A stretch of 32,000 nucleotides of DNA from Candidatus Iainarchaeum sp. (GTDB lineage: Archaea; Iainarchaeota; Iainarchaeia; Iainarchaeales; CSSED10-239), in the NCBI GenBank assembly GCA_003559395.1, contig PWLL01000077.1:12225-44224 (forward strand), in the 5' to 3' direction. The notes beneath the pieces were generated by a model. It saw nothing but the letters and a program-made list of their open reading frames with translations. It ran no database searches and was not told the DNA's origin. Shown piece by piece: positions 20,343 to 22,107 of the stretch. The first letter of the stretch is position 1; every line of letters begins with the position of its first letter. Both the position numbers and the translations under genes were made by a program.

Positions 20343-20632
20343 TCGAAGAAGAAACATTGTATATGGCTAGAAAGATTGCATTATTTAATAGTGAAGTAAT
20401 TTTTTTTGTAAAAAACAGTTTAACTTATTTAACAGAAAAAAAATTAAGAGATTTGTTGAACGAAAAAGAAAAAATAGAAGTTTTAATAAAAAACTCTTAC
20501 AACGCAGACACTAACTTAATAGTGGCAAACGTAGAAAATAATGATAATCACGATTTAACAAAAATAGATGTCGAATTAATACAAGAAGTTTTAAAAGAGG
20601 GAGTGAGAGAGCCGTCAATTACCCCTCCCTAA
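20333..20632 (+). CDS. Hypothetical protein; last codons are encoded by the IscB-element left end
   Basis: 99-aa ORF. The C-terminal ..REPSITPP* is read from the GC-rich left-end hairpin region. Confidence 0.45.
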   Translation: MGIIEEETLYMARKIALFNSEVIFFVKNSLTYLTEKKLRDLLNEKEKIEVLIKNSYNADTNLIVANVENNDNHDLTKIDVELIQEVLKEGVREPSITPP

Positions 20633-20641
20633 AGGAAGGGG
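20622..20641 (+). repeat. Left-end subterminal hairpin
   Basis: CCCCT-C-CC TAAA GG-A-AGGGG: 5 bp, a C.A mismatch, 2 bp, TAAA loop. Confidence 0.65.
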
Positions 20642-20892
20642 CTTGGGAAGTGATTTCTAAGAGCAATTAGTTGATTAGAGAGTTGAAAAAAATGGAAACA
20701 AAACAACAGCAGTTATTTAAGAGAAATACATACACACCCAAAGATGCTTCACAAGTCTTTGGCTCTGTGGTCTTGTCTTTAAACAGAGAGGAAACTCTCA
20801 GTGAGCAAGACTTAAAAACCTTAGATAACAGTCTCGATGTGAACATACAGTCTGGCAAGACTGAACAAAACTTGAGAGTATTTGTTTTAAAC
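20622..20892 (+). ncRNA. Candidate IscB omega-RNA scaffold (extent and guide position undetermined)
   Basis: About 230-270 nt between the left end and the conserved IscB N-terminus. GAGAG-GAAA-CTCTC (20786-20799, GNRA loop). CAGTCT-GGCA-AGACTG (20848-20863). 7-nt complementarity of AAGTCTT (20753-20759) with AAGACTT (20807-20813). Visibly more G+C than the flanks. Confidence 0.5.
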
Positions 20893-22107
20893 ATGCAAAA
20901 AAAACCAATGATGCCTTGCAAACCTGCTAAAGCAAGACATTTATTACAACAAAAAAAGGCAGAAGTTGTTAGCTGTAAACCTTTTACAATACAACTTACA
21001 ATACCAACAGGAGAAACCAAACAAGAAATAACGCTTGGGATAGATAGCGGATATAAGAATATAGGTTTTAGTGCAACAACACAAAAAAGAGAATTAGTTA
21101 GTGGTGAGTTAGAACTTAGAACAGATGTGAGTAAAAAAATTAGTGAGAGAGCAATGTATAGACGAGGAAGAAGAAATAAGTTATGGTATAGGAAGCCCAA
21201 ATTTCTTAATAGAGTAAAAACTAAATGTAAAAATTGGTTAGCACCAAGTGTTCAACATAAAATTGATACACACATTCGGCTTGTTGAAAAAATTAAGATT
21301 TTACTACCGATATCAAAAGTAATTGTTGAAGTTGCTCAGTTTGATGCACAAAAATTACAAAATGTAGACATTCAAGGTGTTGAATATCAACAAGGTCAAA
21401 CACAAGGTCATGATAATCTTCGAGCATTTATACTTCAAAGAGATGGTTATACTTGTCAGATTTGTAATAAGAAAGATGGAATGTTCAATATTCACCACAT
21501 AATTCAAAGAAGAGATGGTGGTAGCGATAGACCAGATAACTTAGTCACTGTTCATAAGAGTTGCCACGATGATTTTCATAGTGGAAAAATTAAACACACA
21601 TTCAAGAAACCTAAGAGTTTCAAGGAAACCGCTATGATGAACAATATTAAAAAGTTTGTGGTGGATAAATTAGGTTGTAATTGTACTTATGGATATATCA
21701 CTAAAAGAAAGCGTATTGAAAACAATTTAGAAAAAACGCATTACAATGATGCGTTTGTTATTAGTGGTATAAGTAATCAAAAGAGAACTAAACCTTTTTT
21801 TAGTAAACAAATTGGTAGAAACAACCGTTGTTTACAACTTAATCGTAAAGGTTTCAAACCAAGTATTAGAAAACAAAGATATAGTTTTCAACCAAACGAC
21901 ATAGTAGAATTTGAAGGCAATAAGTATTTGACTAAAGGTAGTCATAACAAAGGAACAAGAATAATAATTGTTCGAGATAACAAAAATAAGAGTGTTAGTA
22001 TTAAAAAAGTGAGGATAATATGCTTTGGAAAAGGAATTGTTTTTAGCACTCGGCAATTCCTCACCACCCTAAAGGATGGTGTCTCCTTGCCTCAAACAAT
22101 AAGATGA
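20872..22107 (+). CDS. iscB: IscB RNA-guided nuclease (RuvC-HNH, Cas9 ancestor family)
   Basis: (L/M)RVFVLNMQKKPMMPCKPAKARHLLQQKKAEVVSCKPFTIQL (PLMP domain). LGIDSGYKNIG (RuvC-I). MYRRGRRNKLWYRKPKF (bridge helix, RRXRR). VIVEVAQFD (RuvC-II). CQICN..NIHHII..DNLVTVHKSCHDDFH (HNH). HYNDAFVIS (RuvC-III). The start is either TTG 20872 or ATG 20893; the track start 20671 is probably over-extended across the omega-RNA. Confidence 0.85.
   Translation: MRVFVLNMQKKPMMPCKPAKARHLLQQKKAEVVSCKPFTIQLTIPTGETKQEITLGIDSGYKNIGFSATTQKRELVSGELELRTDVSKKISERAMYRRGRRNKLWYRKPKFLNRVKTKCKNWLAPSVQHKIDTHIRLVEKIKILLPISKVIVEVAQFDAQKLQNVDIQGVEYQQGQTQGHDNLRAFILQRDGYTCQICNKKDGMFNIHHIIQRRDGGSDRPDNLVTVHKSCHDDFHSGKIKHTFKKPKSFKETAMMNNIKKFVVDKLGCNCTYGYITKRKRIENNLEKTHYNDAFVISGISNQKRTKPFFSKQIGRNNRCLQLNRKGFKPSIRKQRYSFQPNDIVEFEGNKYLTKGSHNKGTRIIIVRDNKNKSVSIKKVRIICFGKGIVFSTRQFLTTLKDGVSLPQTIR
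22062..22081 (+). repeat. Right-end subterminal hairpin
   Basis: CACCA-C-CC TAAA GG-A-TGGTG. Same architecture as the left end; the four differences form two compensatory base-pair swaps. Confidence 0.65.

Follow-up and report, generated by a model that had tools for sequence, protein, structure and literature searches.

An IscB-omega-RNA element of IS200/IS605 type at a gene junction in a virus-like, probably archaeal replicon

What does an RNA-guided nuclease do when its gene is wedged between two genes of a virus-like genome? The question is raised by a 32,000-nt stretch of contig PWLL01000077.1 (assembly GCA_003559395.1, Candidatus Iainarchaeum sp.), referred to here as the window, which carries a gene for an IscB nuclease. 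A preliminary description of this locus had recognised an intact IscB in what it took to be an archaeal-virus-like genome, and had offered several roles for it, i.e. retention or homing of the element that carries it, or attack on competing viruses or host DNA. Our analysis confirmed that the gene belongs to a non-autonomous IS200/IS605-type element of ~1.49 kb, running from 20614 to ~22097/22106, whose content is an omega-RNA and iscB only. We consider it likely that this is an RNA-guided retention or homing element, placed at the junction of two co-transcribed genes in an AT-rich, probably archaeal, virus-like replicon.

The nuclease and its omega-RNA

The RNA and the protein are encoded one after the other (positions are those of the window):

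20614 to 20848, + strand: omega-RNA scaffold, HEARO (RF02033), found by cmscan at 126.4 bits against a gathering score of 83 (E 4e-26, model positions 1-211 of 211)
20872 to 22107, + strand: iscB coding sequence, core of 411 codons (Pfam, PHROG, PDB alignment, family alignment, model and fold search)
21043-21045, + strand: IscB D58, catalytic
21328-21330, + strand: IscB E153, catalytic
21496-21498, + strand: IscB H209, catalytic
21739-21741, + strand: IscB H290, catalytic
21748-21750, + strand: IscB D293, catalytic

The translation of the + strand open reading frame (ORF) 20671-22107 carries each of the IscB motifs named beforehand. The profile search that had been proposed as a check gave a Pfam match to RRXRR (PF14239) over the full length of the profile (positions 1-174, E 4.4e-62) and one to HNH (PF01844, E 5.9e-11), and the RuvC-HNH-RuvC core matched PHROG 119 (E 4e-70) and PHROG 2214 (E 2e-44), both of which are labelled 'HNH endonuclease' and are IscB-like. 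The top phmmer matches to PDB sequences were IscB, IsrB and small Cas9 chains only, the IscB chains at E 5e-39 to 2e-36, and alignment to OgeuIscB paired GIDSG with GIDPG, VEVAQF with LELNRF, HHII with HHVV and HYNDAF with HYLDAY. In the family alignment (n=59) D58, E153, H209, D293 and three cysteines were invariant and H290 almost so, while M14 and P15 of the PLMP motif were conserved. The earlier claim that all catalytic residues are present is therefore borne out by the 59 homologues and by OgeuIscB.

An AlphaFold2 model built from the 59-sequence alignment (predicted local distance difference test, pLDDT, 78.1; predicted template modelling score, pTM, 0.72) has the arginine-rich bridge helix RRGRRNKLWYRKPKF at residues 86-100 and a beta-rich C-terminal domain at residues 309-384 (pLDDT 85-92). 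Residues 393-411 have no structure in the model (pLDDT <50); it is the terminal hairpin region of the element that codes for this C-terminal stretch of ~19 residues. The structure comparison suggested in the preliminary description returned IscB structures as the best matches (8csz, E 1.2e-24, probability 1.00, query template modelling score, TMq, 0.55), with IsrB next and Cas9 structures far weaker; the TID part is covered by this whole-chain match (E 1e-24, TMq 0.55). The intact protein with the full domain order that had been described thus holds in the Pfam profiles, the OgeuIscB alignment and the fold match: profiles and alignment give a split RuvC (I, II and III) with HNH inserted, and alignment, model and fold match give the PLMP region, bridge helix and C-terminal domain without a REC lobe, as in IscB. 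A type II CRISPR-Cas (Cas9) assignment does not fit, as there was no CRISPR-like array among the repeat families listed for the window, no Cas family turned up in Pfam scans of its ORFs, and the protein has 411 residues and no REC lobe.

HEARO, the RNA now named IscB omega-RNA, was the sole Rfam family in the whole window (which has no tRNA), and it lies directly upstream of iscB on the same strand, as a cognate omega-RNA should. It occupies an equal relative position at the loci of close relatives that we retrieved (L003, L004, L005, L146 and L149) and in Clostridium phage c-st. The mismatch per codon position among IscB copies was 0.29/0.20/0.52, which indicates that the protein is under purifying selection across copies. 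These results show a full IscB in which no catalytic residue of RuvC or HNH is missing, and for which nuclease activity is predicted. The IscB/OMEGA identity is supported at every level, by the domain profiles, by the catalytic residues, by the fold and by a cognate omega-RNA that lies where one would look for it.

The start codon of iscB may be TTG 20872 or, as gene callers have it, ATG 20692 (471 aa). The latter lies within a variable loop of the omega-RNA and would add ~60 residues (20692-20871, + strand). This stretch is without codon periodicity (mismatch 0.31/0.355/0.315 in 10 copies), and on that ground we rejected the 60-residue N-terminal extension as a real protein domain. The IscB frame is nevertheless free of stops across 20692-20871 in 9 of the 10 close copies and in 27 of 43 distinct elements, the other two frames having 2-7 stops.

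Ends, insertion site and guide

The termini of the element and the sequences adjoining them are as follows:

20598 to 20613, + strand: predicted 16-nt guide segment AGGGAGTGAGAGAGCC, assigned by its position directly 5' of the HEARO scaffold
20622 to 20641, no strand assigned: subterminal hairpin CCCCTCC-CTAAAG-GAAGGGG at the omega-RNA end, read from the sequence (DNA fold energy not above shuffles)
22062 to 22081, no strand assigned: subterminal hairpin CACCACC-CTAAAG-GATGGTG at the iscB-stop end (DNA fold -9.0 kcal/mol, z -2.0; independent copies aligned)
22099 to 22106, + strand: candidate transposon-adjacent motif (TAM) or insertion target motif ATAAGATG, abutting the element

We compared the window with seven contigs bearing close IscB relatives. 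Homology by blastn covered 20614-22110 against L003 and 20596-22106 against L004. At the omega-RNA end, which is the transposon right end by TnpA convention, all copies start with GTCAAT(C/T)ACCC, while the 30 nt upstream are unrelated between independent copies. This end coincides with the first base of the full-length HEARO match, so that the left coordinate of 20614 given previously was exact. The 32-nt end GTCAATYACCCCNCCCTAAAGGANGGGGCTTG was found again in 5 IMG/VR and 80 metagenome stretches, and the upstream flanks of at least 20 nt, 88 in number, were nearly all different. The hairpin at this end doubles as the first stem-loop of the omega-RNA, and its loop, CTAAAG, is common to both hairpins.

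At the iscB-stop end (the transposon left end) the copies have the hairpin in common, followed by TCTCCTTGNCTCAAAC up to 22097; TCTCCTTGCCTCAAAC (22082-22097), directly after the hairpin, holds the last bases conserved unambiguously among copies. After CTCAAAC comes ATAAGATG in four independent insertions (the window, L003, L004 and L149) and ATATGATG in L158, beyond which the flanks diverge; L005 and L146 carry related GATG/ATGA motifs. In these seven insertions, element bases and target bases of the motif opposite the omega-RNA are not separable. The ATAAGA within the window's motif fits NWRRNA, which we take to be the TAM of OgeuIscB. Two scans of IMG/VR gave no match, one by pattern with the iscB-stop-end hairpin and one with a 464-aa protein.

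Discrete ends, subterminal imperfect hairpins, the lack of terminal inverted repeats and unrelated insertion sites are what distinguishes an IS200/IS605 (ISC) element, and the element was found at different sites on other, mostly virus-like, contigs. In these alignments 20614 to ~22097/22106 has the anatomy of an IS200/IS605 element. The view that this is a mobile element and not a fixed viral gene is upheld, since homology stops at the element ends and the flanks of independent copies are unrelated.

The element is flanked by two host genes:

20333 to 20632, + strand: upstream host gene, 99 aa, no family match (ORF list), its last codons (SITPP-stop) from the element
22104 to 22532, + strand: downstream host gene, 142 aa, two C-terminal hydrophobic helices, no family match (ORF list)

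The insertion point is the junction of these co-oriented genes and falls within the last codons of ORF 20333. As the preliminary description had noted, the element supplies the end of the upstream gene (now ...REPSITPP-stop), and iscB shares an ATGA with the gene that follows, the IscB TGA being at 22105-22107 and the ATG at 22104. The TAA of the upstream gene (20630-20632) sits in the loop of the terminal hairpin. The site without the element can be reconstructed in two ways, as ...GGGAGTGAGAGAGCC joined to AATAAGATGAATATTTGG or as ...GAGAGCC joined to ATAAGATGAATATT. Deleting 20614-22097 leaves ...CC/A ATA AGA TGA, in which ORF 20333 ends ...REPIR-stop with its TGA overlapping the ATG of ORF 22104; deleting 20614-22098 leaves ...CCA TAA G ATG, in which it ends ...REP-stop. 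Under either predicted boundary the element-free site is a normal, tight gene junction. The junction of the 99-aa and 142-aa genes is not conserved in the closest replicon relatives (L151, L153).

The predicted guide segment is host-replicon sequence just outside the element, in the 3' end of ORF 20333; its length of 16 nt is presumed to be that of OgeuIscB. The guide occurs once in the window, and no second target was found in the window or in 1.45 Mb of retrieved loci with up to 3 mismatches. Because it is unique, guide and far-end motif together would specify only the uninterrupted form of the locus. No sigma-70-type promoter was predicted in the 800 nt ahead of the guide, the nearest TATA-rich stretch upstream of the omega-RNA is at 17803-17850, and the element has the orientation of the surrounding operon, whose genes overlap. 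We infer that the omega-RNA is made by read-through of the operon transcript.

No TnpA accompanies the element. A Y1 (HUH) TnpA domain was found in none of the window ORFs scanned with Pfam, tblastn with the TnpA fragment of phage c-st detected none in the window or the virus-like contigs, and none was present in the 4-10 kb flanks of L003, L004, L005, L145, L146, L149 and L158 (Pfam lists, tblastn). The earlier remark that no tnpA is nearby thus agrees with both kinds of search, and the lack of TnpA in the window makes the element non-autonomous. By tblastn, TnpA does adjoin IscB in the cellular copies L006, L016, L017, L019, L020 and L055. Only ~1.5% of iscB genes have an adjacent TnpA (Meers et al., PMC10055086). 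As copies occur at different sites, transposition must have occurred, with TnpA supplied in trans. One candidate, Nodularia phage gp086, was rejected as a TnpA; it is a TnpB-like zinc-finger fragment.

Experiments on bacterial IscB and TnpB elements have shown that the donor joint or vacant site is cleaved and the element then restored by recombination, so that the transposon is retained; TAM recognition is common to TnpA and IscB, and the TAM flanks the end opposite the omega-RNA (Meers et al., PMC10055086). Since the guide here equals the upstream flank, a role in retention or homing fits the anatomy, and of the roles suggested previously it is this one that stands, there being no sign of aim at competitors or the host. 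We propose the following. Read-through transcription of the operon would yield an omega-RNA whose 5' 16 nt (20598-20613) are the host sequence just outside the element. IscB with this RNA would cut those copies of the replicon in which the guide sequence directly precedes ATAAGA/ATAAGATG, i.e. an element-free allele or the donor site remaining after excision, and recombination repair with an element-bearing genome would then restore or copy the element. In a replicating virus population or a co-infection the effect would be RNA-guided homing or retention, while moves to new sites would need TnpA in trans, from the host or from another element. A 2026 review (PMC13565253) considers homing of this kind without TnpA, into plasmids or into homologous DNA of co-infecting phages, the latter under the name 'non-restorative transposon homing'.

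Several observations weigh against this proposal. The distribution over many sites requires true transposition, for which homing alone is insufficient. Exact-protein look-ups of IscB and of the upstream and downstream genes gave element-bearing contigs only (SRR490128, SRR490129); no element-free allele of the site was found, and so no presence/absence polymorphism. The comparison with relatives for an empty site, which had been suggested beforehand, was thus productive for the element boundaries and not for the element-free allele. The exact end on the iscB-stop side lies between 22097 and 22106, so that boundary and TAM are good to ~9 nt only, and in the window an additional A (22098) separates CTCAAAC from ATAAGATG, which could move the TAM register by one base. 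Finally, the IscB start codon is ambiguous between the TTG and the ATG given above.

The host replicon

Is the host a virus, and is it archaeal? The window has a G+C content of 22-36% and its genes form two blocks, on the minus strand over 1-8.7 kb and on the plus strand over 8.7-32 kb. They include GT4 and GT2 glycosyltransferases, an XPB-like helicase and two N4/N6 methylases, as well as the following features:

8666-10840, + strand: 724-aa protein with a weak SF3-helicase/DUF5906 match (Pfam)
12088-13698, + strand: 536-aa prim-pol-like protein with invariant DxD / SGNG / D motifs and no Pfam domain
18008-19912, + strand: P-loop ATPase with two mini-inteins (~137 and ~130 residues), no endonuclease domain detected
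14956, 23543, 28440 and 30706 (+ strand), 8421 (+ strand), 7379 and 1891 (- strand): repeated promoter-like motifs, from the repeat families of the window

Relatives of the replicon include three viral contigs in IMG/VR, 53-116 kb long, and two contigs in ENA, which share the helicase (61% identity), the SF3-like protein (54-58%) and the prim-pol-like protein (46-52%). They carry phage-type replication modules (a phage-type clamp loader, 1e-61, with PolB, exonuclease, UDG and QueD), and IscB is either absent from their homologous region or elsewhere (L003). The layout of the window is also virus-like, with long co-oriented blocks of small overlapping ORFs mostly without known families, and with secreted or lipoprotein-like small proteins, large unknown proteins and a CBM5/12 carbohydrate-binding protein coming after the replication block. 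These points argue against a host that is a plasmid-like replicon or an integrated cellular element, in which case the insertion sequence would simply lie in a mobile element or a chromosome. That alternative, which we regard as unlikely, draws on the recognisable genes, which are those of replication and modification (prim-pol-like, weak SF3, helicase, methylases, glycosyltransferases), and on two negative results: no capsid, portal or terminase match among the ORFs of the 32 kb window (Pfam, PHROGs, E up to 1; 12 kb of the host contig lie outside the window) and no match of three core proteins by tblastn to 50,697 phage records. Megablast of 18 kb of the window against these records gave no match. 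To call the host replicon virus-like is plausible, i.e. reasonable though unproven.

Seven repeated promoter-like motifs, all intergenic, occur as AAAAAAAATATATATATAAA (four times) and AACATTTATATAYTAGTTA (three times). In the cases measured an ATG lies 22-27 nt downstream, a spacing that corresponds to the archaeal geometry of a TFB recognition element (BRE)/TATA promoter with leaderless mRNA. Of all features of the window, these motifs point most clearly to an archaeal host. For the GT2 protein, the closest homologue with a name is from a metagenome-assembled genome of Candidatus Woesearchaeota (49% identity). On these sequence features the host is probably archaeal, although two facts caution against a strong inference: named IscB relatives come from both domains, bacteria and archaea, and HEARO elements with an identical 32-nt end are multi-copy in a bacterium of ~30% G+C (see below). 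The archaeal-virus-like genome of the preliminary description can accordingly be kept as regards its IMG/VR relatives, gene content, promoters and GT2 homologue, but not as regards capsid, portal and terminase genes, for which the 32 kb gave no match. The product of ORF 22104-22532 bears some resemblance to the small two-helix proteins that serve as capsid proteins in spindle-shaped archaeal viruses.

The 536-aa protein belongs to a family of 116 proteins known from metagenomes only; its candidacy as a structural protein was dropped in view of the prim-pol-like DxD and SGNG motifs. It and the 724-aa protein next to it mark a group of replicons, 40-180 kb in size, that is uncharacterised and partly represented in IMG/VR. 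In the P-loop ATPase the first intein splits the Walker A loop (DKG/C...VVSN/SGKSS) and the second comes after the Walker B region; a homologue on the IMG/VR contig L153 is without the first intein. After splicing, the extein would match PHROGs only weakly, with a DnaA-like hit (E 0.0016). The two N4/N6 DNA methylase genes are tandem duplicates (3184-3933 and 3939-4655, - strand) with ~80% identity over repeats of 230 and 105 nt. Two adjacent small paralogues with signal- or lipoprotein-type N-termini lie at 23051-23540 (+ strand), one with an internal 84-nt duplication, and the CBM5/12 beta-propeller gene at the window edge (31561-32000, + strand) contains three 123-nt tandem repeats.

Other roles and known systems

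The element might instead be an inactive or decaying passenger, i.e. an ordinary insertion sequence copy without effect in the replicon. The lack of a nearby TnpA, the lack of a predicted sigma-70-type promoter before the guide and the ambiguous start codon would all suit a passenger, but we think it improbable in view of the full-length ORF with every catalytic residue intact, an omega-RNA well over the Rfam threshold across the whole model, the codon-position signature of purifying selection among copies, and the preservation of both neighbouring reading frames and of the operon layout despite the insertion.

The relatives of the nuclease bear on a further alternative. The nearest IscB proteins, 60-72% identical, are all metagenomic (from a 5.8-billion-protein collection), whereas identity in GTDB representative genomes reaches 49% at most. 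The relatives at 60-72% were seen mostly on virus-like contigs and none came from representative cellular genomes, a hint that the closest IscB clade is virus-associated. A nuclease that the virus has domesticated and turned on its competitors or on the DNA of the host, in the manner of phage-encoded CRISPR-Cas, could draw on the virus-like contigs of the relatives that could be inspected, on the 49% ceiling in GTDB genomes and on a second IscB that may share the contig (unverified), yet it is very improbable, as the guide is identical to the flank, which holds for any mobile copy, and has no further match in the window or the 1.45 Mb of loci, as the transposon ends are kept and occupy different sites in different replicons, and as there is no array and there are no alternative guides.

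That possible second IscB (P0034, 61% identical) lies outside the window; it is recorded on an NCBI contig equal in length to the one that holds the window (44,224 bp), and the replicon may have two different IscB elements. Some 30 contigs of ~30% G+C (L066-L132, from the SDBU/SDBV/SDBT metagenomes) end 95-230 nt inside a HEARO element whose 32-nt terminus is the one found here. They encode housekeeping proteins of bacteria (TypA, IF-2, S1, GroEL, bacterial AspRS), and they look like one bacterium with many IscB copies that break the assembly; a viral origin was rejected for these pieces of bacterial chromosome.

How does this retention or homing element compare with systems already described? 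The IscB/OMEGA family was reportedly introduced by Altae-Tran and colleagues in 2021. The protein shares with OgeuIscB (PDB 7UTN, 7XHT, 8CSZ) the order PLMP, RuvC-I, bridge helix, RuvC-II, HNH, RuvC-III and TID, the catalytic residues are alike, and in both the omega-RNA, which has the guide at its 5' end, comes just ahead of the gene on the same strand. OgeuIscB gave the best sequence and fold matches, yet identity is only ~20-25%, and the present IscB is ~85 residues shorter (411 against 496). Unlike in OgeuIscB, the reading frame here is open through two thirds of the omega-RNA and the ORF extends to the very end of the element.

The ISGst5-type IscB elements of Geobacillus stearothermophilus are IS200/IS605 elements with the omega-RNA at the transposon right end (Meers et al., PMC10055086). 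The present element resembles them in that arrangement, in a guide outside the element and in an AT-rich motif (a candidate here) that abuts the opposite end; it is also like them in that most copies are without TnpA and in the proposed role, i.e. cleavage of the empty site or donor joint followed by recombinational restoration. It differs in that its host is a virus-like replicon and not a bacterial chromosome, no TnpA partner was identified, and the ISGst5 motif TTCAT is replaced by the candidate ATAAGATG (on the IscB strand), which is read here from sequence alone.

Occurrence in viruses is likewise known. Aliaga Goltsman et al. (2022, PMC9755519) reported that over 16% of the fragments encoding HEARO come from viruses or prophages, and IscB with HEARO RNA inside a viral genome (a virus-like one here) is common to those cases and the present one. 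Among cultured phages, Clostridium phage c-st encodes an IscB (CST143) that matches 95% of the query at 42% identity and is immediately preceded by a HEARO RNA of 140 bits; phages of Nodularia, Microcoleus, Ralstonia and Staphylococcus have homologues at ~30% identity. Downstream of the c-st copy, which belongs to a bacterial tailed phage, lies a truncated TnpA, whereas the present copy is without TnpA, in a replicon that resembles no catalogued phage and appears archaeal. As IscB with HEARO occurs in cultured phages and was published in 2022, the context as such has already been described; what is specific here is the host, a probably archaeal replicon that resembles no catalogued virus, together with the hint of a virus-associated closest clade.

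A further parallel is with SegF, SegB and Mob of T-even phages, which are also selfish nuclease genes wedged between conserved viral genes (virus-like genes in the present case). Such a nuclease is expected to cut the allele that lacks its own gene at co-infection, and to be copied in by repair (PMC13565253). Unlike in the T-even homing endonucleases, the target here is predicted to be read by an RNA guide and TAM and not by protein, self and non-self would differ by presence or absence of the insertion, and transposon ends are kept.

Current understanding is left unchanged by these results, as IscB function, element architecture and viral occurrence are all published. They add an IscB-omega-RNA element that has clear limits and is apparently functional, in a virus-like and probably archaeal replicon of a little-known kind, and one more compact IscB (~410 residues) for enzymology. 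With its guide, both ends and candidate TAM readable, and with neither neighbouring gene disrupted, the locus is a convenient natural test case for the question of whether OMEGA nucleases act as homing endonucleases in virus populations. We further suggest, as a tentative idea, that the element might represent a virus-adapted IscB lineage that persists and spreads among archaeal viruses mainly by RNA-guided homing at co-infection, without a transposase of its own. If true, this lineage would be to RNA guides what the free-standing homing endonucleases of T-even phages are to recognition by protein. It would also provide a case from nature of 'non-restorative transposon homing', the arguments for which have so far been largely theoretical.

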